Positions 9,945 to 57,676 of a stretch of 64,000 bases of DNA are shown in pieces. The DNA is from Chloroflexota bacterium (GTDB lineage Bacteria; Chloroflexota; UBA4733). The notes below the pieces were generated by a model, which was given only the letters and a program-made list of their open reading frames with translations, made no database searches and was not told the DNA's origin. The stretch is taken from NCBI GenBank assembly GCA_036734945.1, contig DAIMXP010000023.1, positions 1-64,000 on the forward strand, in the 5' to 3' direction. The position numbers and the translations under genes were made by a program. Within the stretch, counting starts at the first letter, position 1, and every line of letters starts with the position of its first letter.

Positions 9945-10320
9945 CTGCTGCTCCTGTCCTCCAGTGCGCCGGCTCTTCGCCCCGATACGGTTTCGGCCCG
10001 CGACTGCGGTCGCGGGTAGGCTTATCTAAACTGTATTGCTCTTCGCCTTTCCAGCATATGCTACTCTGCCGGACGGCGGCGCGCATCTTGACATTCCCGG
10101 CTACAGGACTGACCAGGGTCCGCCCGCGCTTTCTTACCCTGCCCGTGCGATCGCGGCGGGCGTTCCATCACGATGGCAACAGGAGCCGTGGCAGCTTTTG
10201 GCAGTTTGGCGGCGCACTTTGATAGCTGCCGTACCGGACGCTTCACACGAACGGCGAGCGGTATAGGTGCGGAGCGATAACGGATCACCCGCACCTTGAT
10301 GATCTCAGGAGGTGACACGG

Positions 10321-23933: not shown

Positions 23934-24698
23934 CTATGTATCCTGTCCGCGCCGTAGGCGATCTAACTCCGCGCGAAGACACGCGACTTCCGCCTCCGCG
24001 TTCTGTCGCGCCTCCGTCTCCAGGTGCTGACGCGCTTCTGCCGCGCGCTGCGATGCTTCTGCCGCGCGCTGCGATGCCTCCGCTTCCCGGATGCGAAGTT
24101 GTTGGGCATGGAGTGGTGTAAGTTGCGCTCCGCTGCGCCCGTCCAGCACCTCCAGGACGTCATCAACGATCATAAAGCGGATCGGCAGCACCCTGCTGGC
24201 GAAACTGCCGTCCGCTTCCTCCAACAAGGGCTCCGGACCCTCCCGGCCCAGCAAGTTCCAGCCGCGGATTCGTGGCCCGGCAAACTCGCCCGACGGGTTG
24301 AAGAGCCAGTACTCGGGAATGCGTAGCTTGTGATAGGCATCAAGCTTCCCGACCTGGTCGGCCTTGAGAGAGGTAGGTGAGAGGTATTCCGCAACCAGAT
24401 CGGGCATCTTGCCTTCTTGCCACGGATCGTAGACGCGGTGATTGCGCTGGGGCACTCCCCGCGCCACAAGCAAGTCGGGCTGCAGCATCGGCTCTCGTCC
24501 CGCCGCGTCCCGGCGCAGCCAGCGCTGGAAACTGACGTAGCAGTCGGGGCCGGCAAAGCGCTCAAAGAGGACGGTGTAGCAAAAGATCTGCTCCATATAG
24601 TGGTAATCGCTCGCCAACGGCTCGTCCCCTTCCTCGCTGTATTCCAGTTCCATCGGGTCAAGCACTGGAAAGAGGGTCAAAGTCTCCTGTTGCAGCAT
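23934..24698 (-). CDS. Uma2 family (DUF820) PD-(D/E)XK-like endonuclease
   Basis: PDLVAEYLSP...KLDAYHKLRIPEYWLFNP core. A C-terminal coiled-coil carries a 21-bp tandem duplication. Confidence 0.65.
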   Translation of the reverse strand: MLQQETLTLFPVLDPMELEYSEEGDEPLASDYHYMEQIFCYTVLFERFAGPDCYVSFQRWLRRDAAGREPMLQPDLLVARGVPQRNHRVYDPWQEGKMPDLVAEYLSPTSLKADQVGKLDAYHKLRIPEYWLFNPSGEFAGPRIRGWNLLGREGPEPLLEEADGSFASRVLPIRFMIVDDVLEVLDGRSGAQLTPLHAQQLRIREAEASQRAAEASQRAAEARQHLETEARQNAEAEVACLRAELDRLRRGQDT

Positions 24699-27586: not shown

Positions 27587-29127
27587 GTGGCAGACCTCCA
27601 AGCGGTCGGGATCGACCTCGGCACAACCTACTCGTCGGTAGCGATCGTCGATGCCCAGGGCAACGTCCAGCTTATCCCTAACGCCGAGTCCGAACGGTTG
27701 ACGCCGTCGGCTGTCTACTTCGATGACGACTCCATCGTGGTGGGTCAGATTGCCAAGGATAAGGCGGCCAGCGACCCCGATCGGGCGGTGCTCTTTGTCA
27801 AACGCCAGATGGGCAGCCTCCATTGGCTCTTCGGCCACGAGGACCAGCGCTACTCCCCAACCGATGTCTCCGCCATCATCCTGGCAAAGCTCAAGCGGGA
27901 CGCCGAACAGTACCTCAATCGTCCCCTTCCCTACGCCGTCATCACGTGCCTGCCTATTTCGATGACGACCGGCGACGGGCCACCATTGCGGCCGGGGAGC
28001 TAGCGGGCTTCAAGGTGCTTGATCTGGTCAACGAGCCAACCGCTGCGGCGGTCGCCTTCGGCGTGGAACGCAGCACACAGGACGAGACGGTGCTGGTCTA
28101 CGACCTCGGAGGGGGGACGTTCGACGTCACGCTCATGCATGTGGCGGGCAAGCAGATTCGGATCATCGGGACGGATGGAGATCATCAGCTCGGCGGTAAA
28201 GATTTCGACGACGCCATAATGGTGTACGCCGTTGAGGCCTTTCAACGCGAACACGGCTTCGATCCGTCCATTGACCCCTTTGTGGCGGCGGAGTTGCGCG
28301 GTCAAGCTGAACGAGCCAAACGGGAACTGAGCAAGCTGACCAAGGCATCCCTGGCTGTGCGCGCTCAAGGCAAAAGTACGCGCGCTGTGCTTTCCCGCGA
28401 ACAGTTCGAGGCGCTGATCAAGCCAAAGCTGGATACGACACTGGCGCTGGTACGCACGGTCATCACGGAGGCGAAAGTAGCACCCGGACAGGTGGACCGT
28501 GTGCTTCTCATCGGCGGCTCGACGCGCGTGCCGGCGGTGGCCCAGGCACTGGAGCGCTACTTCGGCAAGGCTCCCGATGCTTCCGTGAACCCGGATGAGG
28601 CAGTGGCGCTGGGAGCCGCGCTCATGGCCGCGCGGAAAATGGTCGACGCAGCCCCGTTGGAGGCGCCCCCGAAGGTGATCGAGAAGGTGGGTGGACTGGA
28701 AGTCACCGACGTCTCCGCGCACAGCCTCGGCATCGAAGCCTTCGTTCCCGGCACCAGTCAGCGCCTCAATAGCATCCTGATCCCCCGGAACAGCCCGATC
28801 CCCACGGAAGTCTCGCGCGAGTTCGTGACCGCCCTTCCCGGTCAGACCGCGATCAAGGTCACGATCTATCAAGGTGAATTTCCAGACCCCAACCTCTGTA
28901 ACCCCATCGGGGAGTTCACGCTCACGGGTCTGCCAGCGAACCGTTCGGCAGGACAGAAGGTAAGGGTGACGGTTTCCTGCGGAACCAGCGGTGTGGTGAA
29001 CGTGACTGCACTCGACATCGCCACGGGTCACCAGACTGCCACCGAGGTGAGTTACCGTGGCGACAAGGGTGGCGAAGCCAAGAAGAGCGCCCGAGACCGC
29101 TGGAAGACGGCGAAGCCGATCGTCTGA
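27587..29127 (+). pseudogene. Hsp70-family protein lacking the C-terminal lid, interrupted by a -1 frameshift near 27946
   Basis: N-terminus AVGIDLGTTYSSVAIV. The frame switches after AVIT (expected AVITVPAYF; the sequence atcac|gtgcct lacks 1 nt). The downstream frame reads VPAYFDDDRRRATIAAGELAGFKVLDLVNEPTAAAVAFG. Confidence 0.7.
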
Positions 29128-29193: not shown

Positions 29194-30456
29194 ATGCCGA
29201 ACAATCGCCACCTGGTGAACGACTTCGATATCCTCCGGCCGACGCAACTCCTCGAACGTGGCCTGCCCCTGCCGGGGTTGGACGGCCGTCACATTGTGGA
29301 ACATGGCTGGTGCTGCATCATCACCATCGACGGCGTCTACCAGGAGACGCTGGGGCCAGGTAAACACCACCTCGGTCGCTACCCCTTCTTCGGCAACGTC
29401 AAGGCCACCGCCGTCGATACGCGCATCAAGACGCTCACAATCTCTACCACCCGCGAGTTCACCATCGAGAAGCCCGTGCCGGTAGAGATCAACCTGGATC
29501 TGGCCGTCGAGTATCAGGTGAAGGATGCCCGCCGCGTCGTCCTCGAAGTCGGCCAACCGCTCACCGGACTGTACGACCGGGTGATTCAGGCAGTGCGCGG
29601 CGCCGTCGTCTTTGCGACCGTGGAAGACATCCGCCGTCAGGGTGAGACGATCGCCCAGATGACGCTGCAACGCCTGCAAGCAATGCAGCTCCCAAAGATT
29701 CTCGGCATTGAGGTCTTCACGATACTCGTCAACTCAATCAAGGCGACGGACGCCGGGAACGATGCGCTGGCCGCCCGCCAGATGGAGGAGTACACGCGGG
29801 TGCGCGACTGGCAACTCGATTCGCAAATGCTGTCCCAGTCGCAGATGACGCCGGAGTGGATGCTCATGCATCGACCGGAAGTGTACGCCCAGATGATGGC
29901 CGGCAACCAGGCCCTCATGAAGGAGTTGATCGAACGAGGCATGCTTGACCCGGCCGCCGTTCTGAGCCGACCGGTCGGCGCTACGTACGTTGATCCGCAG
30001 TCTATGCTGGCTGCCTTGACGGGCGGCGCGGCCTCGGCGTTCGGCGGCGTCCCGAGTCTTGGGTCCGGCATCCCCGCGACACACGGCTCTCCGCAGTTGC
30101 CCGAAGCCTTGCCGGGCAGTAGCCAGGCCGCGGCAGGAGGCGACATCATGGCGCGAATGCGCGAGGATATCCGCTACCTCCAGGCGCTGCCGGGAGTGGT
30201 GGTAGAGACCAAGCCCGGCATTGACGACCTCGGCGTGCCCGACGGCTCCTACGACGTGCAGGTGCAACTGCCGCGCAGCTCGGGCGGACGTCTCCAACTG
30301 TACGTGATGTGCCCACGGGGCTACCCACAGCAACCGCCGACCGTCGAACTGGACCTGGACGATCAGCCCACCCCCTTCCAGTCGGCCATCCTGCGGCGCT
30401 GGACCGGGCAGTATCTCGTGGAGATCGCCCGCGAAGCCAAGCAATACTGGGGGTGA
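29194..30456 (+). CDS. SPFH/band-7-like domain protein with a C-terminal E2/RWD/UEV-like (YPxxPP) module
   Basis: SPFH-like block YQETLGPGKHHLGRYPFFGNVKATAVDTRIKTLTISTT...GIEVFTILVNSIKATD. The C-terminus LQLYVMCPRGYPQQPPTVEL resembles the UBC/RWD YPxxPP signature. Confidence 0.5.
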   Translation: MPNNRHLVNDFDILRPTQLLERGLPLPGLDGRHIVEHGWCCIITIDGVYQETLGPGKHHLGRYPFFGNVKATAVDTRIKTLTISTTREFTIEKPVPVEINLDLAVEYQVKDARRVVLEVGQPLTGLYDRVIQAVRGAVVFATVEDIRRQGETIAQMTLQRLQAMQLPKILGIEVFTILVNSIKATDAGNDALAARQMEEYTRVRDWQLDSQMLSQSQMTPEWMLMHRPEVYAQMMAGNQALMKELIERGMLDPAAVLSRPVGATYVDPQSMLAALTGGAASAFGGVPSLGSGIPATHGSPQLPEALPGSSQAAAGGDIMARMREDIRYLQALPGVVVETKPGIDDLGVPDGSYDVQVQLPRSSGGRLQLYVMCPRGYPQQPPTVELDLDDQPTPFQSAILRRWTGQYLVEIAREAKQYWG

Positions 30457-30465
30457 GGGGACAGC

Positions 30466-31203
30466 GTGTCTGACTTCTACCGCGCCCTTCGGGTGATGCC
30501 CTCCGCCACACCGGAGCAGATCGCCAGCGCCTACGCGCGCGAACGCACGCGTGTGGAGACGCCCGGGGACACGCCGGAAACGTCAGTAGCGGCGCGCCTG
30601 ACGGCGATTGAGGAAGCGTACGTCGTGCTCGGTGACCCTGAGCGCCGCGCTGCCTACGATCGGTCGTTGGGCAGTACTCGCGCGCGCGCCTCAACCGTGA
30701 CCGTGCAGGCGCTCGTCGATGCCGAGCCAGAAGCAGGACCTTCCCCGTCGGCGGCCCCACTCGCAACCATCACTCCGTCGACGCCATCGTCGACTGCAGC
30801 CTCACTGAACGCATCCACTATCAACCTCGACTTGCTGTCTCCAGCGCCGACCGTGCGAGCCTGCCCGAATTGCGGCAATTCCAACCCGGTACAGGCGACC
30901 ATCTGCTCGTCCTGTGGCGGGCAGATGACCCGGCCTTGCCCCTATTGCGGCCAGCCGGTGGCCCTCAGCGAAGCCGTCTGCCCACGCTGCCACACCGTTG
31001 TCACGGAGTATGACCAGCGCCGTTTCGCCGTGGCGGTGCAAGGGGACCACCAGGTGCAAGAAGAGCGACGGGATCTCTCGGCCGGGGTGGAGGCACTGGA
31101 GGCTTCCAATGCCCAACGCAACCAGAACGCGCTCATCTTCTGGCTGGTGGCGCTGGCCCTTTTTGTTGGCGTCATCATCTTCCTGGTAAGCCAGGTCCAT
31201 TGA
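30466..31203 (+). CDS. J-domain-like (no HPD) double zinc-ribbon protein with a C-terminal transmembrane anchor
   Basis: FYRALRV...IASAY...LGDPERRAAYDRS is a J-fold with TPGDTP where HPD is expected. Zinc ribbons CPNCG...CSSCG and CPYCG...CPRCH. Terminal hydrophobic helix. Confidence 0.5.
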   Translation: MSDFYRALRVMPSATPEQIASAYARERTRVETPGDTPETSVAARLTAIEEAYVVLGDPERRAAYDRSLGSTRARASTVTVQALVDAEPEAGPSPSAAPLATITPSTPSSTAASLNASTINLDLLSPAPTVRACPNCGNSNPVQATICSSCGGQMTRPCPYCGQPVALSEAVCPRCHTVVTEYDQRRFAVAVQGDHQVQEERRDLSAGVEALEASNAQRNQNALIFWLVALALFVGVIIFLVSQVH

Positions 31204-31940
31204 ATGCTGCAATGACCATGGCAACGCTGCCTCCCGAGACCACCCCGGAGCAGGGTCTGATCTGCAGCAACTGCCACGCGCTCAACTCCGCCGGCGCCAG
31301 CGTCTGCACTGCCTGCGGCGTGCGCCTGGTCAACCTGCCGGACGCCGTTGTTCGGCTACAGGAGATCGAACGGCAAGAGGCGGCCGCGCATGCCGCCATC
31401 CTCCAGGCCAGGACGGCAACACGCATTGACGGCGAGTGGCGGCGAAGCGTGCGCGGACTGCGCCGCCAGATGGTCTGGCTCCTCGCGGCTGCGCTCGTCG
31501 CTGCTGCTGCTGGGCTAGGGGTCATGCGCTTCCACCAACATCAACTCGCCGTTCAGGCTCAACACCTGGCGAGCGACTACGCCGCGGGGATGCTGTGCCT
31601 GAGCGATACCAACTTCCTCTGTGCCCGCGACGACTTCCAGGCGTTGCTGCTGGAGTCCCCAGGCTATCGCGACGCGGCCGACAAACTGCGCGAGGCGCGC
31701 TATGGTCTGGCGCGCCAATACGCGGCGGGCGGCCAATGGCAAAAGGCGCTGGATGAGCTGAACGCTGTGCTCAATCAGAAGCCGGGCGATGCGCAAGCGC
31801 TGACCCAGGAGCACGATGTCTACAACCGCTGGATTGCCGATGTGTCGGGCCACGGCGACTACTTGCAAGCGCTGCGCCTGATTCTGCAGCGCGACGCCCG
31901 TTTTCCTCCCGGCCAGCCGGATATCTACAGGGAGACGTGA
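31200..31940 (+). CDS. Zinc-ribbon / TM / TPR-like repeat protein
   Basis: CSNCHALN...CTACG ribbon, one TM helix and a C-terminal helical repeat region. It overlaps the previous gene by 4 nt. Confidence 0.45.
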   Translation: MNAAMTMATLPPETTPEQGLICSNCHALNSAGASVCTACGVRLVNLPDAVVRLQEIERQEAAAHAAILQARTATRIDGEWRRSVRGLRRQMVWLLAAALVAAAAGLGVMRFHQHQLAVQAQHLASDYAAGMLCLSDTNFLCARDDFQALLLESPGYRDAADKLREARYGLARQYAAGGQWQKALDELNAVLNQKPGDAQALTQEHDVYNRWIADVSGHGDYLQALRLILQRDARFPPGQPDIYRET

Positions 31941-31999: not shown

Positions 32000-32944
32000 A
32001 TGGCAACCTATTACGAGACCTTGCAAGTGCAGCCGACGGCAACGCCTGCCGAGGTCGATGACGCCTGTAACACGCTGTACAACAAGTGGCGGCGGCTGGT
32101 GACGCACCACGACCCGAGCGTGGTAAACCAGGCCAATCAGGCGTTGCAGCAGGTGGATGCGATCCGCTCCACGCTGAGTGACCCGGTCCGGCGCTCCGCC
32201 TATGACGAGGGCATCGGGTTGAATGGGGCGATTGGCGGGCTGGCGGACCCAGAGGCGGTGCTACGGGCAATGCCGGTCGTGACGATGGCGCCGCCCTCTC
32301 CGCCGCCCCCTCGACCATTGGCTGGTCCACCTGCGCAGGTAGCCGCCAGTCGGCCGGGGCTGTGGGCGTGCCCCAAGAAGGGGTGCGGCGCCGAAAACCC
32401 TCCCAATACGAAGTTCTGCTTCAAGTGTGGGACGCAGTTGGTGCAAGAGTGCCCCGAGTGTAAGAAAATGTCATCGCTGATCTCGACGAGTTTCTGCGGG
32501 GAGTGCGGTTACCGCTACAGCATAGCTAGCGAGCGGGCTGCGACGTTAGCGGCTTGGCTGGAACTACAGCAGAATGTCGAGCGGCAAAATGGGGAACTGG
32601 GAATGCTTCAGGAACAGCGCAACCACATGAAGTATGGTGGGCACATCTTCTGGATGATCGTGTTCGGGTTGGGAGCACTTGGAGTATTTTTAGGGGCGCA
32701 CTCTGACTATGAAAAGGGAGGTGCTGTGGGTGTGAGTGTGAGTGTGAGTGTGAGTGTCGTCCTCGGTGCCTTCTTGGTGGGGATTGTCGTCCTTATTGGA
32801 GTGGGGTACAGCAGCAAGCAGAAGGAGAAGGCGAAGGCTGACGCCGCCATCGTCGCCAAGCGCAGCGAGATTGAGCGAACGACTCAGATGATGGCCGGCT
32901 CGGCTCAGGTGTATCAGCAGCTTGGACAGCGCAAAGCGGGGTGA
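32000..32944 (+). CDS. J-domain-like (HHD variant) zinc-ribbon membrane protein
   Basis: YYETLQV...LVTHHDPSVVNQANQ...LSDPVRRSAYDEG. Ribbons CPKKGCG...CFKCG and CPECK...CGECG. Coiled-coil and 2 TM helices with a VS repeat encoded by (GTGAGT)n. Confidence 0.5.
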   Translation: MATYYETLQVQPTATPAEVDDACNTLYNKWRRLVTHHDPSVVNQANQALQQVDAIRSTLSDPVRRSAYDEGIGLNGAIGGLADPEAVLRAMPVVTMAPPSPPPPRPLAGPPAQVAASRPGLWACPKKGCGAENPPNTKFCFKCGTQLVQECPECKKMSSLISTSFCGECGYRYSIASERAATLAAWLELQQNVERQNGELGMLQEQRNHMKYGGHIFWMIVFGLGALGVFLGAHSDYEKGGAVGVSVSVSVSVVLGAFLVGIVVLIGVGYSSKQKEKAKADAAIVAKRSEIERTTQMMAGSAQVYQQLGQRKAG

Positions 32945-33005
32945 GATTCTGGGGTGTGACGCAAAGTAGTACGCAGCAAGCGAACGACGTGAGTACCAAA
33001 GAGCA

Positions 33006-33500
33006 CAGGGCCGCGATTGCGGGCCCAGAGGGCGCCCCCGGCCAAGTTACCGGGGCGACTGCGGTCGCTTGGGTGGGGGAGGACGGTTGGGGGCAAGGGA
33101 CGTTCGATGGGTTGGGAACAGGGCCGCGATTGCGATCGGCGGCCAAGGACGGAGGGCGACTGCGGTCGCTTGGGTGGGGACCGACGGTTGGAAAAGGCGA
33201 AAGATTGGTTCATCTTGAACAGGGCCGCGATTGCGATCGACGGCCAAGTGACGAGGGCGACTGCGGTCGCTTGGGTGGGGACCGACGGTTGCATATTCAC
33301 AGCGCCTCGGCCCCTGCTCCCCTTCACCATTCCTTGCCTCCCGCAACCGTCCTTACCCTGTCAAGCGACCGCAGTCGCCCCCGTCACTTGGCCGCCGATC
33401 GCAATCGCGGCCCTGTACTCCCCCACCCACCTTCCCGCAGCCTCCCCCAACCGCACTCCCCCGGCCAAGCGACCGCAGTCGCCGCCCTGCGATCTCCCTA
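33006..33500. repeat. Family-B REP/BIME-like cluster with three direct and two inverted copies of a roughly 50-75 bp unit (GGGCCGCGATTGCGATCGGCGGCCAAGTGACGGGGGCGACTGCGGTCGCTTGG)
   Basis: Units were read directly from the sequence. Each holds two hairpins (GGCCGC..GCGGCC and GCGAC-TGCG-GTCGC). The same unit recurs at 37.8 and 55.2 kb. Confidence 0.7.
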
Positions 33501-33549: not shown

Positions 33550-36546
33550 ATGCAGTTCCCCTATATCTTCCTTTCCAGCCGTGAATTCGTCCAGGAGGCT
33601 GTCGACTTCGACAACAATCATGGTGTGACCTACCGGGAGGTCGGCGGCGAGCATGCCATCTGGGCGGCGCGGGTGCCGTTCGTCCCAGCGATGATGTCGG
33701 AGGACTTCACGCGCCTTGGCCGGGAACGCATCCGGCTCATCATGGAGCGCCAGTTCCATTTCATCTACGACCTCGCCCGGCTGCGGGAGCATCGCGCTAC
33801 CTTTGAGCTCCGCTTCATCGCCACGCCCAATCCGGTCCCCGGCCAACCCAACCTGATCGACATGGTCTTCCTCGGCAAGGTCTTCGCGACGCGCTTCCGG
33901 GGCGGCCAGCCGCTGGCGGAACGGCTCTGGGAGAAGTTCCAGGCGACGTTTCCGGTGGAGGACCCCTTCAACTATCCGCTGGAGCCGGTGACCAACGAGG
34001 CGGAGTTTCGGAGTTACCTGGAGCCGATCCCTACCGCCAACCTCACGGCGGACTGTCTGCTCGAAATCCGCAAGTATGAAGACATGCCGATTCGCAGCAC
34101 GGCAGCGCTTGGCCGCCTGGAGCGAACCGGTGACTATGTCGCCCACCCCTTCGTCCCCTGCGTCGACTTCAACCCCATGGGCCGCTTCCTGGCGGCGCTC
34201 GCCCGCGAACCGCAACGCTGCCTGGTGGGTATCAGTCTGCGGCCTGTACGCATGTTCGACCAGGAAATCTTCAATGTCAGCTATGCCATCGGCCAATTCA
34301 AGAAGACCATCGGCGACGACGCTGGCGTCACCGAGGAGTACATCCGCTCGCGGGCCGGCATCGGCACCTTCGTCTATCAACAGTTGATGCAGGAACGCGA
34401 GGGCCTGGTGCTGGTGCGCGTTCACCTGGTGGGCGAGGACCACGCGCCTTACGGCCTCGCCGGCGCGCTTGGCTCCGAGATGATGGGCAACGCCGAGAAC
34501 GTCTACCCGACGCAGTGGTCCGCCGCCCAGCCGGCCGACGAGCACGAATTCGCTACTGCCGTCGCCAACCTGCGCTTCTTGGAGCAGGCGCACTGGGGCC
34601 ACACGATTGCGCCCTTACCACTCCAGCGCCTCCGCTACTTTGCCACTGCGCGCGAAGCATATGGCGCGTTTCGGCTGCCTGTCCCTTCCGAGTCCGGCTA
34701 CCTCCCCGGCGTGCTGGTCAAGAGTGAACCATTCGTCGCGCCGGCTGACGAATTGGAACTGCGCGAGCAGGCCCGTGCCAACCGCAACGATGCGCTCGCA
34801 GCCTCCACCGAGCAGGCCCGCAACCGCAAGGTCGGCCTTGGCGTAGTCTACCACCGCGGTTCAGCCACCGCGCAGGCATTCCGACTCAATGTGCGCGACC
34901 TCACCCGCCACGCGCTCATCGCCGGCTCCACCGGCAGCGGCAAGAGCACGACCGTCAAGCACATTCTGGTGCAGCTCTGGCTGGAGCACCGTGTCCCCTT
35001 CCTGGTCCTGTACCCGGTCGATAAGCCCGACTACCGCGAGCTGCGCGGCTTCCCGGCACTGGCCGACGAGTTACTCGTGTTCACGTTGGGTGACGAGAGC
35101 ACGTCGCCCTTCCGCTTCAACCCTTTTGAGGTACCGGATGGCCTGCTGCTCAAGACGCACCTCTCTCGCCTCATGCGAGTCTTCACCGCTGCCTTCAGCC
35201 TCCAGGATCCTCTGCCCATGATCTATCGAGAGGCGCTTCGCCAGGTCTATCGGGAGAAGGGCTGGGACATTGTCCTGGAACGCGGCGAATCGAGCCGCGA
35301 CTATCCGACCATGGCGGAGTTCTATGCGGCGATCAAACGCATTGCCGACGGGCTGGAGTACGGCCGCGAGGTCAAGGATACCGTTCGCCAGGCCTCCGTC
35401 ATCCGCATTGGCGATTTGCTGGAGAATGCCGGCCACGTCGTCAACGTGCGCCGATCTATGCCGCTCGGCAAAATTCTGAACCAGCCCACGATCATGGAGT
35501 TGGGCCGCGTCGGCTCCGCCCAGGACACCGCGCTGCTGATGGGCTTCCTGTTGATGCGCTTCACCGAGGAAGTGGAGCGTCACCCGCGTCACGCCGAGCA
35601 CCCGCACATCACCGTGATCGAGGAGGCTCACCGTCTGATGGCGGAGACGGGGCCACGCTCCGAGTCGGGCGGTGACACGCGCGGCGCGGCCGGCGAGGAC
35701 TTTGCCAATATCCTGGCGGAGGTGCGCGGCTTCGGTGAGGGCATCATCATCGCTGAGCAGATTCCCACGTTACTGGTCAAAGGCGCCATCGGCAACACCT
35801 ATCTGAAAATCATGCACTGGCTGGAGGACGCGCCGAGCTTTGAGTCCTTCGCCGACATGATGAACCTCAACGCGGAGCAACGGGAGTACGCCCGCACCCT
35901 CACGCCCGGCTTCGCCCTCCTGCGTAATCCCTACGGTCGCCCGGTCCACGTCAAGGTACCGGAGTTCGGCGATCAGCCGGGCTACTGCCGCGAGGCCCTG
36001 CCCGACAGCTCCGACGCGAGCATTCGCGCCTTTATGGAGACGCAGCGGCAGAAGCTGGCGCTGGGCGACGTACCGGTTGACCCGTGGGATATCAGTCTCA
36101 GCGCCGGTGGGTCTGCCGCCGGGGCCACTCAGGCGGGGGCGGAGCTGCTGCAGTTGCTCGTGGCGGCGCCTATGGCAACCTGCGCCTACTGTGCCCCGTT
36201 ACACGCCACGAAGCGCTGCCGCTATGCCGGGGCGGTGCGCCGCCGTCTGCTCAGCGACTCCGCCTTCGATCAGGCCCGGCAGGAGGAGCTGCGTTCCGTG
36301 CTGGCACAGGAACAGCAATCAGACCTCTGGTTGGAAACGCGCGGCTGGGGCGCCCGCGTAGAAGAGCGGGTACGATCGGTCACGCCGGCCGACCGACGCG
36401 GCATCGTCTACTGCTACCTGGCGCACTCTGCCGACAGTATGGCGCGGGGAGCATCGGCGAAGGCGGAGGGGACAACGCCCGAGGTTCGCCGCGCCCGCGG
36501 CCTGCTCCAGCAATTTGAAGCAGAATACCCAAAGCCGGAAGGATGA
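33550..36546 (+). CDS. HerA/FtsK-type P-loop ATPase (DUF87-like) with a large uncharacterised N-terminal domain and a Cys-rich C-terminal region
   Basis: 998 aa. Walker A LIAGSTGSGKSTTV at about residue 450. Walker B HITVIEEAHRL (hhhhDEAH, characteristic of HerA/VirB4/FtsK). C-terminal CAYCAPLH..KRC. Confidence 0.6.
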   Translation: MQFPYIFLSSREFVQEAVDFDNNHGVTYREVGGEHAIWAARVPFVPAMMSEDFTRLGRERIRLIMERQFHFIYDLARLREHRATFELRFIATPNPVPGQPNLIDMVFLGKVFATRFRGGQPLAERLWEKFQATFPVEDPFNYPLEPVTNEAEFRSYLEPIPTANLTADCLLEIRKYEDMPIRSTAALGRLERTGDYVAHPFVPCVDFNPMGRFLAALAREPQRCLVGISLRPVRMFDQEIFNVSYAIGQFKKTIGDDAGVTEEYIRSRAGIGTFVYQQLMQEREGLVLVRVHLVGEDHAPYGLAGALGSEMMGNAENVYPTQWSAAQPADEHEFATAVANLRFLEQAHWGHTIAPLPLQRLRYFATAREAYGAFRLPVPSESGYLPGVLVKSEPFVAPADELELREQARANRNDALAASTEQARNRKVGLGVVYHRGSATAQAFRLNVRDLTRHALIAGSTGSGKSTTVKHILVQLWLEHRVPFLVLYPVDKPDYRELRGFPALADELLVFTLGDESTSPFRFNPFEVPDGLLLKTHLSRLMRVFTAAFSLQDPLPMIYREALRQVYREKGWDIVLERGESSRDYPTMAEFYAAIKRIADGLEYGREVKDTVRQASVIRIGDLLENAGHVVNVRRSMPLGKILNQPTIMELGRVGSAQDTALLMGFLLMRFTEEVERHPRHAEHPHITVIEEAHRLMAETGPRSESGGDTRGAAGEDFANILAEVRGFGEGIIIAEQIPTLLVKGAIGNTYLKIMHWLEDAPSFESFADMMNLNAEQREYARTLTPGFALLRNPYGRPVHVKVPEFGDQPGYCREALPDSSDASIRAFMETQRQKLALGDVPVDPWDISLSAGGSAAGATQAGAELLQLLVAAPMATCAYCAPLHATKRCRYAGAVRRRLLSDSAFDQARQEELRSVLAQEQQSDLWLETRGWGARVEERVRSVTPADRRGIVYCYLAHSADSMARGASAKAEGTTPEVRRARGLLQQFEAEYPKPEG

Positions 36547-36553
36547 CCGCACA

Positions 36554-36841
36554 GTGAGCGACTTCACCTTCGACCCTGCGGCTGCCGACGCCATTGATGC
36601 AGCGGTAAACACCGCCTCACTCGACGTCAGCGGCCCGGCCCTGGAAGTACCGGAGGTGCAGGCCGACGCCGACGTGCCCGATGTCGTTCCGGCTGGCGAC
36701 GACACTACCCTCGCCACGATCCATCCGCCAGAACAGCCGGAGATCGAGCCCCACATGGAAAACGAGCCCGTCACCATCGAGACGGGCGGTAAGTCGCTGG
36801 AGCCGCCGGAAGGCTGGACTCCCCGTGGTCCCGAGGGGTGA
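36554..36841 (+). CDS. Small acidic hypothetical protein
   Basis: Asp/Glu/Pro-rich and abuts the ATPase gene. The start is uncertain (36515 ATG overlaps the previous CDS; 36554 GTG). Confidence 0.3.
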   Translation: MSDFTFDPAAADAIDAAVNTASLDVSGPALEVPEVQADADVPDVVPAGDDTTLATIHPPEQPEIEPHMENEPVTIETGGKSLEPPEGWTPRGPEG

Positions 36842-37458
36842 TAGCGATGGACGACATCGATGTCGCCGAGCCACCAACACCCGAAGTACTTGACGCACCG
36901 GCGACGGACGACGGCCAGGGAAGCCTGGATGGCTCTGTCGACTACACCATGGAGACGGATCTGCAGGTGCAGGATGCCACCGATGCGCTGCAGCAACTCG
37001 ACGGCATCTCCCCAGCTACCTGGCAAACGCTGGATGCCCAGGGCCGATTGGAGGCCCTGCAGAGCGTGGAGGACAGTATGGCGGCCGTGCAGGGTCGCCC
37101 GGGCTTGTCCGTTGAAGCGGAGGCCCTCGGCCCCGGTGTCTGCGGCGCCTACGACGGGTCGCGGCTCGTTGTGAACGCCGAGCAACTTGACAGTGCAACG
37201 CCTGTCGGTGAATTTGTGGACACTGTTGTTCACGAGGATCGCCACGCCTTCCAGGACTTCGCGGTGAGCCATCCCGGCACGGTGACCGATGGCACAGTGG
37301 TCGGGGCCTGGGCAGCGAATATGGAGCCTGGGCAGTACCTCAGTGCCGAAGACTACGGTCTAGAGGCCTACGCCGCCCAACCGATCGAAGCGGATGCCTG
37401 GGCCTATGCAGGCCGCATTGCCCAGGGCCTCGGGCTGCCCCGACTGGAGTCGGAATAG
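36838..37458 (+). CDS. Putative zincin-like metallopeptidase (HExxH) with an acidic N-terminus
   Basis: TVVHEDRHAFQD contains HEDRH (HExxH). Overlaps the upstream stop (GTGA). ATG at 36847 is an alternative start. Confidence 0.45.
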   Translation: MIAMDDIDVAEPPTPEVLDAPATDDGQGSLDGSVDYTMETDLQVQDATDALQQLDGISPATWQTLDAQGRLEALQSVEDSMAAVQGRPGLSVEAEALGPGVCGAYDGSRLVVNAEQLDSATPVGEFVDTVVHEDRHAFQDFAVSHPGTVTDGTVVGAWAANMEPGQYLSAEDYGLEAYAAQPIEADAWAYAGRIAQGLGLPRLESE

Positions 37459-37780
37459 GATGGAGATGGAACGCGATACTGTCGTGTCCCGACTGGTAGA
37501 GGAATTCGGCTATCCGCTTCACGGTGCATCGTTAGTAGCCGACAAGTTACTCGCGCTCTCACCACCAGTGCGCGAGGCCTTCATCTCGTGGTGGGACGGC
37601 GGACCCTTGCCCAGCCTCGAAATCTCGGGGGAAACCGTCCGCACCCTCATGGATCAGCACGGTCAACAGCCGATCGCCGCCTTCCTAACGCTCGACTGGC
37701 TCCAGCGCGACCCAGTCGCGGCGCGACGGGTACTACGAAAAGGTCACGATAGCGTCCGCTTCCCAGGACGCCACGTGTAG
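37459..37780 (+). CDS. Hypothetical small protein
   Basis: ATG immediately after the previous stop. 107 aa with no known motif. Confidence 0.3.
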
Positions 37781-37843
37781 GAATGGCGATGGGTGCGCCG
37801 CAAAATCCTGCACAGAAAGCGAACGGTATTTAGTGGCGTGTTA

Positions 37844-37974
37844 CAGGGCCGCGATTGCGATCGGCGGCCAAGTGACGGGGGCGACTGCGGTCGCGTTGCG
37901 AACCGTCGACGGCGCATCCAAGCGACCGCAGTCGCCCCCGTCACTTGGCCGCCGATCGCAATCGCGGCCTTGTA
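37844..37974. repeat. Family-B REP-like palindromic element (unit + 27-bp spacer + inverted unit)
   Basis: Near-perfect inverted pair of CAGGGCCGCGATTGCGATCGGCGGCCAAGTGACGGGGGCGACTGCGGTCGC. Confidence 0.7.
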
Positions 37975-38062
37975 CTCTCGGGTAATCACGTCGTCCCCTT
38001 TCTAAGCAAACCGTTGCGGCCCCCCAATGCCGATCTGGTTCGAGCCAGCCGAACACAGCCGA

Positions 38063-55173: not shown

Positions 55174-55296
55174 GGCCGCGACTGCGATCGGCGGCCAAGC
55201 TAACGGGGCGACTGCCGTCGCCTGCATCATCGGATGACACGGTGCGATGCGACGGCAGTCGCCCCGTTAGCTTGGCCGCCGATCGCAATCGCGGCC
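55174..55296. repeat. Family-B REP-like palindromic element (inverted pair), preceded by a conserved leader-like TGATGCAAAGCAGTGCGCAGCAAGCGAG that is also found before the 33.0-kb cluster
   Basis: GGCCGCGACTGCGATCGGCGGCCAAGCTAACGGGGCGACTGCCGTCGCC / inverse copy. Confidence 0.65.
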
Positions 55297-55309: not shown

Positions 55310-57676
55310 TTACGCTTCTTCCGCCACGACCTCTGCTACCGCTCCCTCCTCCTTCAATGGAAGCTGCAACAAAATAGCGCGCGCCTTCGTTGGGCCACGC
55401 GGCGGGCCGACGTACCCCTGATCGACAAGCTCATCCATCAGCAGCGAGGCACGGCTCTGGCCGATGCGCAGGCGGCGCTGCAGCAGGGAGAGGGTCACCT
55501 GTGCTTCCTTGCCCTGCTGCTGGGCAGCTTCGGCGACAGCGCGTAGCACAGCCAGCGTCTCTTCCAGCAAGCGGCTCTCCGGGTCTTCTTCCGGTATCGT
55601 CGACCAACTCTCCAGCAGGCTGTGCTGCTCCTCTGGACTCTGCCAGTGCTCCCCCTGTTCCCTGCGCTGATCCCGCCAGAAGGTGATGATCGACTCGATC
55701 TCGTCATCATAGACGTAGGTCCCCTGCACACGCATCGGGCGCAAAGCGTCGGCAGGCGTGTAGAGCATGTCGCCCCGGCCCAGCAGCCGCTCTGCACCGG
55801 GGCAATCTAGAATCGTCTTGGAGTCCACGCCGGAACTCACGGCAAAGGCGATGCGGCTGGGGAAGTTGGCCTTGATCAGGCCGGTGATGACGTCGACCGA
55901 TGGCCGCTGGGTCGCCACGACCAGATGGATGCCGGTCGCCCGCGCCTTTTGCGCCAGCCGGCAAATCTGCTGTTCGACCTGCTCCGGGGCCGTCATCATG
56001 AGGTCGGCCAACTCGTCGATGATGACCACCATGTAGGGCAACGCGGCTTCCCCGCGATCGTTGGCGGCAGCGTTGAAACGCAGAATGTCGCGGAAGGAGC
56101 CCTGGGCAAACAGCGCATAGCGGCGTTCCATCTCCAGGATGCACCAGTCCAGCGCACCGACTACCTTGTCGACATCCACGATTACCGGCGCCTTGAGGTG
56201 CGGGATGCCGTTATAGCCGGTCAGTTCAACCTGCTTGGGGTCGACCATCAGCAGTTGCAGTTCATCGGGCGTGCATTGGAAGAGCAGGCAGTCGATCAGG
56301 GCATTGATACAGACGCTCTTGCCGGAGCCGGTGGCGCCGGCGATGAGCAGGTGCGGCATGCGCGTGAGGTCGCCAAAGACCGGCTCCCCCGCCACATCAC
56401 TGCCGACAATAATTGGCAACTGCGCCCCCTTGGCGCGATAGCGGGTGAACTCCTGGCTCTCCAACAACTCCCGCAGGGTGACGGGAGAGGAGACCGGGTT
56501 GGGCACTTCGATCCCGACATAGGGCTTGCCCGGTACCGGCGCCTCGACACGAATCGAATAGGCTTCCATAGCCAGCGCCAGGTCGTTCTGCAAGCCGACG
56601 ATCTTGGCGACCTTGACGCCGGGGTCGGGCCGCACGCCAAACTGCGTCACGGTCGGTCCCGGCCGGATCTCCTGCACCCGCGCCGCGATGCCGAAATCGG
56701 CCAAAGTGCGCACGATCAGGTCGGAACGGGCGTAGATCGACTCCTGGCTGGCCTCGATCCGGGTGCCGTACTTCAGCATGGACGAATCCGGCAAACGCCA
56801 GGGTTTGCCCGAGCGGGTCGCCGGGGCAATCGGCGCCGGCTCCCGCTTCTGCTTGGCCGGTTCCACTAGCGCCACCGGAGCACCGTGCTGTGCGGGCGCC
56901 ACGGTCTTGATCAAGGGCAACGCCGGTTGCAGCACCGGCGGCGGCGCCAATACCACAGCCGCCATCTGTGCCGGCGCAGGCTTGCGCTCCAGTAAGCGCT
57001 GCAGGGCACGCACAGCCGGCGTGGCGGCCCGCGACGAGGTGCGCAGTGACCAATGCCACGCGCGGCCCACATGCACCACGCCCTGCCAGAAATCGGGCAG
57101 GGAAAGGTGCAAGGCCCAGATCAGGCCAACGAGGACGGCGGCCAACCAGACCAGCCAGCCCACCGGACCCAGCAGTTCCCCCACCAGCGCGCGCAATTCG
57201 GCGCCGCCGAAGCCGCCGCGACCGGGCGCCAGGCCGTCGGCCAGGGCCACCCAGGCGCCGAGCAGCGTGCCGAGCCCCAGGAAGCGCAGCCAGGGAATAT
57301 GCGGCGCGCCGAAGCGATAGTAGCGCACAACAGTCACGACCAGCGCCGTGAGCAACAGCGGCAGCAAGACGGCGGAGCCGCCCATCAGGGCAGTTTCGGC
57401 GGCGTGTAAACGCTGCACCGGCACGGCAGTGCCACGGGGCAAGAGCGGTAGGGCGGCCACGATCAGGAGCGCCAGAAGAGCCAGGCTCACCACCATCGCC
57501 ACATCGAACCAGAGATGGGTCGGCAGATGCCAACCGGTCCACCAGGGCGGAGGGGGGGCTTGGCGACTCCTGCGGCGTTTCGCCGGCGCTGTACGGGAGG
57601 CGCGCGGCGCTGGCGCGGCGGCGCGACGTTCGGCAGCCATACTATCCCCTTTCCCCGCAAATAGTGACACTACCAC
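55310..57676 (-). CDS. ftsK: DNA translocase FtsK
   Basis: N-terminal 4-5 TM helices, a Pro/Ala-rich linker, Walker A LLIAGATGSGKSVCINALI, Walker B MVVIIDELADL and a C-terminal gamma winged-helix. Confidence 0.85.
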   Translation of the reverse strand: MVVSLFAGKGDSMAAERRAAAPAPRASRTAPAKRRRSRQAPPPPWWTGWHLPTHLWFDVAMVVSLALLALLIVAALPLLPRGTAVPVQRLHAAETALMGGSAVLLPLLLTALVVTVVRYYRFGAPHIPWLRFLGLGTLLGAWVALADGLAPGRGGFGGAELRALVGELLGPVGWLVWLAAVLVGLIWALHLSLPDFWQGVVHVGRAWHWSLRTSSRAATPAVRALQRLLERKPAPAQMAAVVLAPPPVLQPALPLIKTVAPAQHGAPVALVEPAKQKREPAPIAPATRSGKPWRLPDSSMLKYGTRIEASQESIYARSDLIVRTLADFGIAARVQEIRPGPTVTQFGVRPDPGVKVAKIVGLQNDLALAMEAYSIRVEAPVPGKPYVGIEVPNPVSSPVTLRELLESQEFTRYRAKGAQLPIIVGSDVAGEPVFGDLTRMPHLLIAGATGSGKSVCINALIDCLLFQCTPDELQLLMVDPKQVELTGYNGIPHLKAPVIVDVDKVVGALDWCILEMERRYALFAQGSFRDILRFNAAANDRGEAALPYMVVIIDELADLMMTAPEQVEQQICRLAQKARATGIHLVVATQRPSVDVITGLIKANFPSRIAFAVSSGVDSKTILDCPGAERLLGRGDMLYTPADALRPMRVQGTYVYDDEIESIITFWRDQRREQGEHWQSPEEQHSLLESWSTIPEEDPESRLLEETLAVLRAVAEAAQQQGKEAQVTLSLLQRRLRIGQSRASLLMDELVDQGYVGPPRGPTKARAILLQLPLKEEGAVAEVVAEEA

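Follow-up and report, generated by a model that had tools for sequence, protein, structure and literature searches.

An SPFH core followed by a helical region is shared by the SPFH cage proteins, which include HflK/C–FtsH, QmcA–YbbJ, stomatin, prohibitin and flotillin, and an N-terminal transmembrane (TM) helix or hairpin is typical, though not strictly defining, of stomatin, HflK/C and prohibitin. RWD and UEV domains serve in protein docking, and what they bind is often an E2 or another RWD (RWDD3–Ubc9, Mms2–Ubc13, kinetochore RWD dimers). Both HerA-type ATPases and CBASS-like E2s are typically associated with immunity. In bacteria, inactive E2/RWD-like domains occur in ubiquitin-like (Ubl) operons (PMC1779556), and Band7-like multimerizing scaffolds and Hsp70 modules have been described in predicted conflict systems (PMC7159879, on multicellular prokaryotes; PMC11090510). 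Here we analyze a 64,000-nucleotide stretch of a Chloroflexota genome (contig DAIMXP010000023.1; hereafter the window) that carries at 29194..30456, on the + strand, the gene for a 420-aa protein termed SPFH-RWD. In the explanation that we favor overall and regard as probable, this protein is a soluble SPFH-family scaffold joined by a flexible tether of ~40 residues to a catalytically inactive RWD-type domain of the UBC fold.

The gene opens with an ATG, and its start codon is right, since the N-terminus MPNNRH is kept in all homologues (the M-x-N-N-R start is invariant in an alignment of 59 homologues). Among 5.8 billion proteins, 92 homologues were found at E ≤ 1e-83, most of them full-length and 43–63% identical; nearly all are 400–430 aa long, and they come from Chloroflexota/Anaerolineae metagenome-assembled genomes (MAGs) and metagenomes. 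In the 59-sequence alignment the SPFH part is conserved, the spacer is variable and rich in gaps, and the C-terminal block is well conserved, with R321, P378, P382 and W403 invariant. A full-length AlphaFold2 monomer model, built with the homologue alignment, reached a predicted local distance difference test score (pLDDT) of 84.9 overall and >93 in both folded parts; the confident model and the 92 homologues together argue against a chance open reading frame (ORF). The protein thus described has two folded parts, no membrane anchor and no E2 catalytic residues. Precomputed Pfam annotation assigns PF01145 to 88 of the 92 homologues (with PF12773 as well in one of them) and nothing to the other four, so the C-terminal module is unannotated. 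The first-pass annotation, made from the sequence alone, had described the SPFH fusion as uncharacterized, in agreement with this listing and with our finding no combination of SPFH and RWD in the literature searched.

Residues 1–190 (29194..29763, +) comprise the conserved N-terminal segment and the SPFH α/β core, with no TM helix. Pfam Band_7 (PF01145) matches residues 34–202 at 42.9 bits against a cut-off of 23.6 (E = 7.3e-11), and a Foldseek search of the full model against the PDB returned HflK/C, stomatin, prohibitin, QmcA, erlin, flotillin and MVP with E-values of 4e-10 to 1e-5. These alignments span ~220–295 columns, longer than the ~110 residues of isolated SPFH core domains, and therefore cover both the SPFH core and the cage-wall helices. 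No membrane anchor was found in SPFH-RWD by hydropathy: the highest Kyte–Doolittle value over 19-residue windows was 1.39, none reaching 1.6. Both an N-terminal SPFH domain and the lack of an N-terminal anchor had been proposed beforehand, and both are borne out. The Met/Gln-rich stretch that was then taken for a linker is indeed rich in these residues (11.6% Met and 9.3% Gln over residues 191–276; 29764..30021, +), but it is modeled as SPFH helices (191–215, 220–226, 228–247, 253–258 and 268–275); composition, model and Foldseek alignments alike identify this Met/Gln/Ala-rich region as the equivalent of the coiled-coil wall of SPFH cages. A disordered spacer at this position was accordingly rejected. 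The true linker is the segment of residues 277–316 (30022..30141, +), a disordered Gly/Ala/Ser/Pro-rich tether (25% Gly, 20% Ala, 15% Ser, 12.5% Pro and 0% Met; pLDDT <50 for residues 277–315) that falls in gap-rich alignment columns and varies in length between homologues.

The architecture, known here from genes and a monomer model, is close to that of the SPFH cage proteins named at the outset (Foldseek E-values of 4e-10 to 1e-6), and its pairing with the gene of a ring-type P-loop ATPase recalls HflK/C with hexameric FtsH. In contrast to those proteins, SPFH-RWD lacks a membrane anchor and an NfeD or FtsH partner and carries an added RWD; its ATPase neighbor is of the HerA/FtsK class and not an AAA+ protease.

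The C-terminal residues 317–420 (30142..30453, +) form a predicted non-catalytic, RWD-like domain of the UBC fold. A module of 90 residues containing LQLYVMCPRGYPQQPPTVEL had been anticipated here; the string and the distinct module are present, but the domain is larger, at ~104 aa. YPQQPP at residues 377–382 (30322..30339, +) corresponds to the YPxxxP signature loop between β3 and β4, and its conservation in the 59 homologues is strict: P378 and P382 are invariant, and position 377 is always aromatic (Y in 49, F in 10). Modeled alone from a 46-sequence alignment, the C-terminal 109 residues gave a pLDDT of 93.6 and a predicted template-modeling score (pTM) of 0.85. The model starts with a helix and three long strands; the YPxxxP loop leads on to a fourth strand, and two helices complete the α-β-β-β-β-α-α sandwich of the UBC superfold. 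The values listed for its structural comparison were 9.8 for the GCN2 RWD, 9.8 for FANCL, 9.3 for the Mms2 UEV, 9.2 for RWDD3, 8.9 for Tsg101 and 8.3 for the Knl1 RWD.

Sequence profiles point the same way at lower strength. The C-domain profile matched PDB sequences weakly (E 0.1–2), and almost all of the matches were E2 or UEV chains. Pfam RWD (PF05773) gave a sub-threshold match to residues 355–390, precisely over YPQQPP (E = 0.024), with 15.2 bits for the whole protein and 18.0 bits for the domain alone against a gathering cut-off of 22.8. When 46 C-domains were scanned against Pfam, RWD was matched in 38 at E ≤ 1 (best E = 2.4e-5), UEV in one and Prok-E2_B in one (E = 0.24); UQ_con was matched in none of the 46. 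By hhalign, the C-domain aligned to an E2 of the neighboring type with 58% probability over 38 columns only. The resemblance to E2/UEV/RWD folds first noted from the signature loop is upheld by the model topology, the RWD matches and the PDB matches, and since model and profiles both point to RWD/E2/UEV, the structure prediction leaves no sign of a non-UBC fold. Compared with eukaryotic RWD domains (GCN2, RWDD1, RWDD3/RSUME and RNF25; PF05773), the window protein is bacterial, fused to SPFH and scores 15–18 bits against the 22.8 cut-off, and its family has features of its own: R321, DG-Y and R-SGG turns, W403, and a Cys at position −4 of YP. Compared with the UEVs (Mms2/Uev1a and Tsg101), to which the sequence E-values of 0.1–2 are not significant, its domain is shorter (104 aa).

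In a real E2, the catalytic Cys lies in a loop after β4 and is preceded by an HPN-type motif; to our knowledge, every known E2 Cys sits in this post-β4 loop. The post-flap sequence of the 420-aa protein, TVELDLDDQPTPFQSAILRRWTGQYLVEIAREAKQYWG, contains no Cys, His or HPN motif, and a Cys after the flap is absent from 58 of the 59 homologues. C373 (in MCPRGYP), which the first-pass annotation had offered as a catalytic candidate, lies at the end of strand β3, four residues ahead of the YP-motif Tyr. This is the wrong side of the flap in comparison with the true E2 of a sister locus (L011), where YPANFPNSPP is followed by a Cys in HLCL 37 residues after YP. C373 is conserved in 57 of 59 homologues, with V or F in the other two, and is replaced by I or L in the divergent members of L034 and L036; across wider relatives, including JAB-RWD, TIR-RWD and 270-aa RWD proteins, Cys occupies the same position in 58 of 64 motif instances. 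Such a pattern of conservation and replacement fits a packed core residue. Judged on sequence, the C-terminal domain is not an E2 enzyme; a catalytic E2 with C373 as the active site was rejected on the position of the residue, the missing HPN motif and the hydrophobic replacements.

Gene neighborhoods were compared across 185,579 species genomes, one for each GTDB species, with the alignment of the neighboring ATPase as seed; the scan used two exact peptide patterns, and its locus counts are lower bounds. It yielded 25 loci holding the ATPase. SPFH-RWD is the signature gene of a conserved cluster, known mostly from filamentous Chloroflexota, in which this ~1000-aa HerA/FtsK-like ATPase is a near-constant member, and the cluster exists in two flavors: A, with Hsp70 and J-domain/double zinc ribbon (J-DZR) proteins (Anaerolineae), and B, with E2, JAB, E1 and a 59-aa protein (Chloroflexia, some Anaerolineae and one cyanobacterium). 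SPFH-RWD adjoins the ATPase in at least 16 of the 25 loci, of which seven belong to flavor A, five to flavor B and four are divergent. ATPase orthologues beside SPFH-RWD are 41–65% identical across both flavors, and two further genes, for an HExxH protein and a 128-aa protein, recur downstream of the ATPase in both.

The seven complete flavor-A loci (Anaerolineae, Leptolinea) contain Hsp70, J-DZR copies, SPFH-RWD and the ATPase; four further loci of this flavor, with arrays of up to eight J-DZR-TM paralogues, are truncated by the contig end or by the 10-kb flank limit. The J-DZR-TM gene type is present elsewhere in two to eight paralogues, with arrays in L013, L014, L017 and L018 that reach eight tandem copies in L013 and L014. 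Around the most distant full-length homologue (P0086, 43% identity), the order matches that of the window: Hsp70, SPFH-RWD, J-DZR, DZR, J-DZR and a 973-aa DUF87 ATPase. Divergent arrangements are seen in Ca. Chlorohelix (Hsp70, SPFH-like-RWD, ATPase), in L034, and in L028 and L031, whose SPFH-RWD genes come after the ATPase; in L036, an RWD-only gene stands by the ATPase.

In flavor B, the five loci of the scan (Oscillochloris trichoides DG6, Ca. Chloroploca, a cyanobacterial MAG and two Anaerolineae) are ordered 59-aa protein, E2, JAB, E1, SPFH-RWD and ATPase, and an orthologous SPFH-RWD lies directly after the E2, JAB and E1 genes in L011, L023, L025, L027, L029 and L035. L011 reads JAB-RWD, 180 aa, 270 aa, 59 aa, E2 (PF26395 E2-CBASS), JAB, ThiF E1, SPFH-RWD and HerA-like ATPase. 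Its SPFH-RWD shares 28% identity with the window protein along the full length (E = 7e-44), the two ATPases are 44% identical, and its 270-aa protein ends in the same RWD module (hhalign probability 95%). The RWD module is thus carried by three different proteins beside a real E2 in flavor B and by SPFH-RWD alone in flavor A. The ~59-aa protein (SLEELKKRL...GK.H.P.DP...KP.RW[FY]) is always encoded before the E2 gene (L011 4305–4484; L023, L025, L027, L029 and L035) and ends in RWF/RWY or with 2–6 more residues; one possibility is an unusual modifier, not ending in Gly, that the JAB peptidase processes. Flavor B has in common with CBASS type II Cap2 (E1–E2)/Cap3 (JAB) and with Bil/Bub a ThiF E1, a PF26395 E2-CBASS and a JAB, here just upstream of SPFH-RWD. 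It differs from them in that neither a CD-NTase nor a recognizable β-grasp Ubl was detected in the flavor-B loci, which have the 59-aa protein instead. The link to ubiquitin-like conjugation suggested beforehand therefore holds for these sister loci and not for the window, where tblastn with L011 queries found no E1, E2 or JAB gene in the 64 kb; the partners of SPFH-RWD there are Hsp70 and J-domain/zinc-ribbon proteins in place of the E1/JAB partners that had been looked for.

All genes of the window cluster lie on the + strand in the order Hsp70, SPFH-RWD, J-like/DZR/TM, zinc-ribbon/TM/TPR, J/DZR/TM, repeats, ATPase and small ORFs. The Hsp70 gene (27587..29127) would encode a short form of ~515 aa if intact, with a nucleotide-binding domain plus a β substrate-binding domain, and is split at ~27946 by a 1-nt deletion: Pfam HSP70 matches both pieces, and tblastn switches frame at 27946. 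The site reads ACG-TGCCT against T-V-P-A in homologues, at codon ~121, and is identical in three contigs from different samples. Programmed frameshifting was rejected since no slippery heptamer is present at the break, which makes a plain deletion more likely, and the local copy of the cluster may consequently be impaired. The downstream piece opens with an in-frame GTG precisely at the break, so two polypeptides could be made.

Downstream of SPFH-RWD, the gene at 30466..31203 encodes a J-like domain without an HPD motif, a double zinc ribbon and a C-terminal TM helix at residues 219–245 (Pfam DnaJ 5e-8, DZR 1e-8). It is followed at 31200..31940 by a zinc-ribbon, TM-helix and TPR protein (weak Pfam zinc-ribbon/TPR matches; TM near residue 90) whose position is conserved in L015, L021, L022 and L024, and at 32000..32944 by a J domain, double zinc ribbon and TM protein with HHDP for HPD (Pfam DZR 8e-9, DnaJ 5.5e-6). 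Hydropathy places TM helices in all three of these zinc-ribbon partners. The J domains of the J/DZR/TM proteins, in 32000–32944 and its paralogues in L013–L024, have a conserved THHDP (or HHDN/HHKP) where HPD is expected, which suggests a private Hsp70–J pairing. The 998-aa HerA/FtsK-like P-loop ATPase is encoded at 33550..36546 (Pfam DUF87 7.5e-8, FtsK_SpoIIIE 5e-5) and matches the HerA and mad8 models of PADLOC-DB v2, which are generic, with E-values of 2e-13 to 3e-3. Next come a 206-aa HExxH protein (HEDRH; 36838..37458), a putative small metallopeptidase with a weak DUF6782 match (E = 0.11) and orthologues in L015–L017, L019, L020, L022, L024 and L035, and a 128-aa protein of unknown fold (37394..37780), with no Pfam match and tblastn orthologues in the same loci.

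Palindromic repeats of ~100 nt, resembling repetitive extragenic palindromes (REP) or miniature inverted-repeat transposable elements (MITE), were also observed; their core GGCGACTGCGGTCGC has 10 matches in the window against 0.04 expected by chance. They lie at 32950–33500, 37833–37977, near 9999 and at 55207–55263. Five or six copies occupy the ~600-bp gap from the last J-protein gene to the ATPase gene, and an inverted pair follows the 128-aa ORF, so that the ATPase block has repeats on both sides. Just upstream of the cluster, among aroE and pheA, the − strand carries a gene for a Uma2-family putative restriction endonuclease (23934–24698). At 56213–56371 (−), a short P-loop stretch is 44% identical over 54 aa to the HerA-like ATPase around its Walker-A region and may mark a second FtsK/HerA-class gene.

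The RWD module has a wider, if small, set of relatives. An exhaustive hidden Markov model search with the C-domain profile recovered only ~100 clusters among 1.84 billion representative proteins, and the same profile run against a word-indexed protein collection returned only eight short fragments and no new architectures. SPFH-TIR-RWD proteins of 669–705 aa (P0110 and P0116; L009 6147–8156; L010, L006 and L007) carry a TIR domain between the SPFH part and the RWD tail, and one such gene lies on an element resembling an integrative and conjugative element (ICE), with TraG, SSB, topoisomerase and a ThiF plus Prok-E2_D pair. P0103 is an RWD-DUF7363-EAD7 protein; both P0110 and P0103 are on short contigs that give little gene context. 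JAB-RWD proteins of ~620–645 aa (P0149, P0142 and P0160) resemble the class 6e theme of Iyer, Burroughs and Aravind 2006 (PMC1779556), whose inactive E2/RWD-like domains are likewise bacterial, Cys-less and of the UBC fold, have RWD/E2 profiles as their best matches and stand beside JAB and E1. Class 6e is set apart from the present family by its description, as polyUbl fusions or stand-alone genes in proteobacterial, actinobacterial and cyanobacterial operons, with no SPFH fusion, HerA-like ATPase or Hsp70/J flavor. As a further observation, P0134, P0136, P0191 and P0183 include one architecture with an N-terminal JAMM/JAB-like domain (H-x-H...S-x-x-D by eye) ahead of two tandem RWD modules, and another of the form RWD-TM-RWD.

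By analogy with HflK/C around FtsH, stomatin and QmcA, the SPFH and helical parts probably oligomerize into a ring or cage. The product would be a soluble platform displaying many RWD domains on 40-residue tethers, each serving as a docking site for a partner. The ring ATPase is the most economical candidate because it is the commonest other cluster gene across both flavors; in flavor B, the E2 or other RWD-bearing proteins might dock as well. The Hsp70/J module would then confer regulated remodeling, or the E1-E2-JAB module covalent tagging, and in flavor A the TM helices of the J/zinc-ribbon proteins may provide a connection to the membrane. The cluster as a whole has a fair chance of being a new system, most likely one of conflict/defense or regulated self-destruction rather than housekeeping. 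Several lines of evidence argue for a conflict role: RWD modules fused to TIR, EAD7 and JAB; HerA-type ATPases and CBASS-type E2s in the loci; the ICE-like element; the J-DZR-TM paralogue arrays; the sparse, filamentous-centered distribution; and the published Band7/Hsp70 precedents. The systems of Kaur et al. 2020 (PMC7159879) share with the present loci an SPFH-type multimerizing domain, Hsp70/J, EAD and TIR fusions and filamentous enrichment, but are built on MoxR-vWA or GTPases, unlike the window cluster. That paper describes no RWD or HerA-like partner, since 'RWD', 'UBC' and 'E2-like' are absent from it and 'HerA' is only in its reference list. Outside Burroughs et al. 2008, which was not covered, the literature yielded no SPFH-RWD fusion, no pairing with a HerA-like ATPase and no alternation of Hsp70/J with E1-E2-JAB.

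In its fullest form, our reading is that SPFH-RWD and the HerA/FtsK-like ATPase are the core of a new modular conflict system of filamentous bacteria, in which the SPFH cage displays tethered dead-E2 (RWD) domains and recruits either of two interchangeable sets, Hsp70/J or an E1-E2-JAB set that conjugates the non-Gly-terminated 59-aa protein; the RWD family, marked by Cys-x3-[YF]P-x3-P, would be a prokaryotic relative of eukaryotic RWD/UEV adaptors. We advance this tentatively, as somewhat doubtful taken in all its parts. Weighing against the explanation that we favor overall, the oligomerization and the RWD partner are inferred by analogy, Hsp70/J with SPFH could fit membrane proteostasis equally, and the Hsp70 frameshift may mean that the local copy is decaying. 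Flavor A has no recognizable effector domain except the possible small HExxH peptidase, and the cluster is flanked in the window by housekeeping genes (pheA, aroE and glycosyltransferases) with no obvious defense island. PADLOC-DB v2 has no match for SPFH-RWD, for the first J-DZR protein or for the zinc-ribbon/TPR protein, and no more than weak ones for the J/zinc-ribbon proteins, and a scan of viral contigs found no relatives in them. An assignment to a known defense system was rejected for want of a PADLOC match to SPFH-RWD, as was a phage origin on the viral-contig scan.

The main rival, unlikely in our estimate though well short of negligible, is housekeeping proteostasis near the membrane: an SPFH oligomer and a dedicated Hsp70, recruited by the J/zinc-ribbon/TM proteins, would act with the ATPase and the HExxH peptidase to extract, remodel or degrade membrane or envelope proteins in the manner of HflK/C–FtsH, with RWD as the docking module. 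SPFH proteins classically organize membrane proteases, HflK/C–FtsH and QmcA–YbbJ are among the top structural matches, and TM helices in all three zinc-ribbon partners, the Hsp70, the J domains, the conserved HExxH protein and the housekeeping flanks would all suit such a role. However, SPFH-RWD itself has no membrane anchor, the Hsp70/J module is swapped wholesale for E2-JAB-E1 in sister loci, and the RWD module is found again alongside TIR, EAD7 and JAB and on the ICE-like element. The sparse distribution (25 loci in 185,579 species genomes, in a pattern-limited scan) and J-protein arrays of up to eight copies, more typical of diversifying systems, also speak against proteostasis. That the cluster in the source genome is a decaying remnant, with an Hsp70 pseudogene and an SPFH-RWD ORF persisting without function, seems less likely again; the shared deletion at codon ~121 and the insertion of a REP-like repeat block between J-protein and ATPase genes would be explained by it, yet every other cluster gene is an intact full-length ORF and the GTG at the break leaves room for two products. 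Moreover, at L028, L030, L031 and L032 the ATPase is present but no Hsp70 was detected close by, so the cluster core may work without it. Very improbable, finally, is an unconventional active transfer domain in which C373 would take up or pass on a thioester-linked modifier in the way of an E2 or E3. The near-universal retention of this Cys in close homologues (57 of 59) and wider relatives (58 of 64 instances), and the adjacency of the domain to a real E1 and E2 in flavor B, would accord with such chemistry; its position before the flap (the L011 E2 has its Cys 37 residues after YP), the lack of an HPN-like motif, the V, F, I or L replacements that fit a buried structural residue, and the lack of any E1 or E2 in flavor A for charging all tell against it.

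We found no report of one polypeptide that joins an SPFH scaffold to a dead-E2 (RWD/UEV) adaptor, both of which are widespread and important in their own right. That one core of scaffold and ATPase is accompanied by either a chaperone or a ubiquitin-like module suggests alternative regulators of the same platform. The well-defined bacterial RWD-like family, with its ~100 clusters among 1.84 billion representatives, bears on the origin of eukaryotic RWD and UEV domains, and the cluster nominates a candidate immune system in Chloroflexota, whose defense repertoire is poorly explored. One member is found in a cultured organism, Oscillochloris trichoides DG6. If true, the modular conflict system would link SPFH scaffolds, chaperones and ubiquitin-like signaling in an experimentally tractable form.

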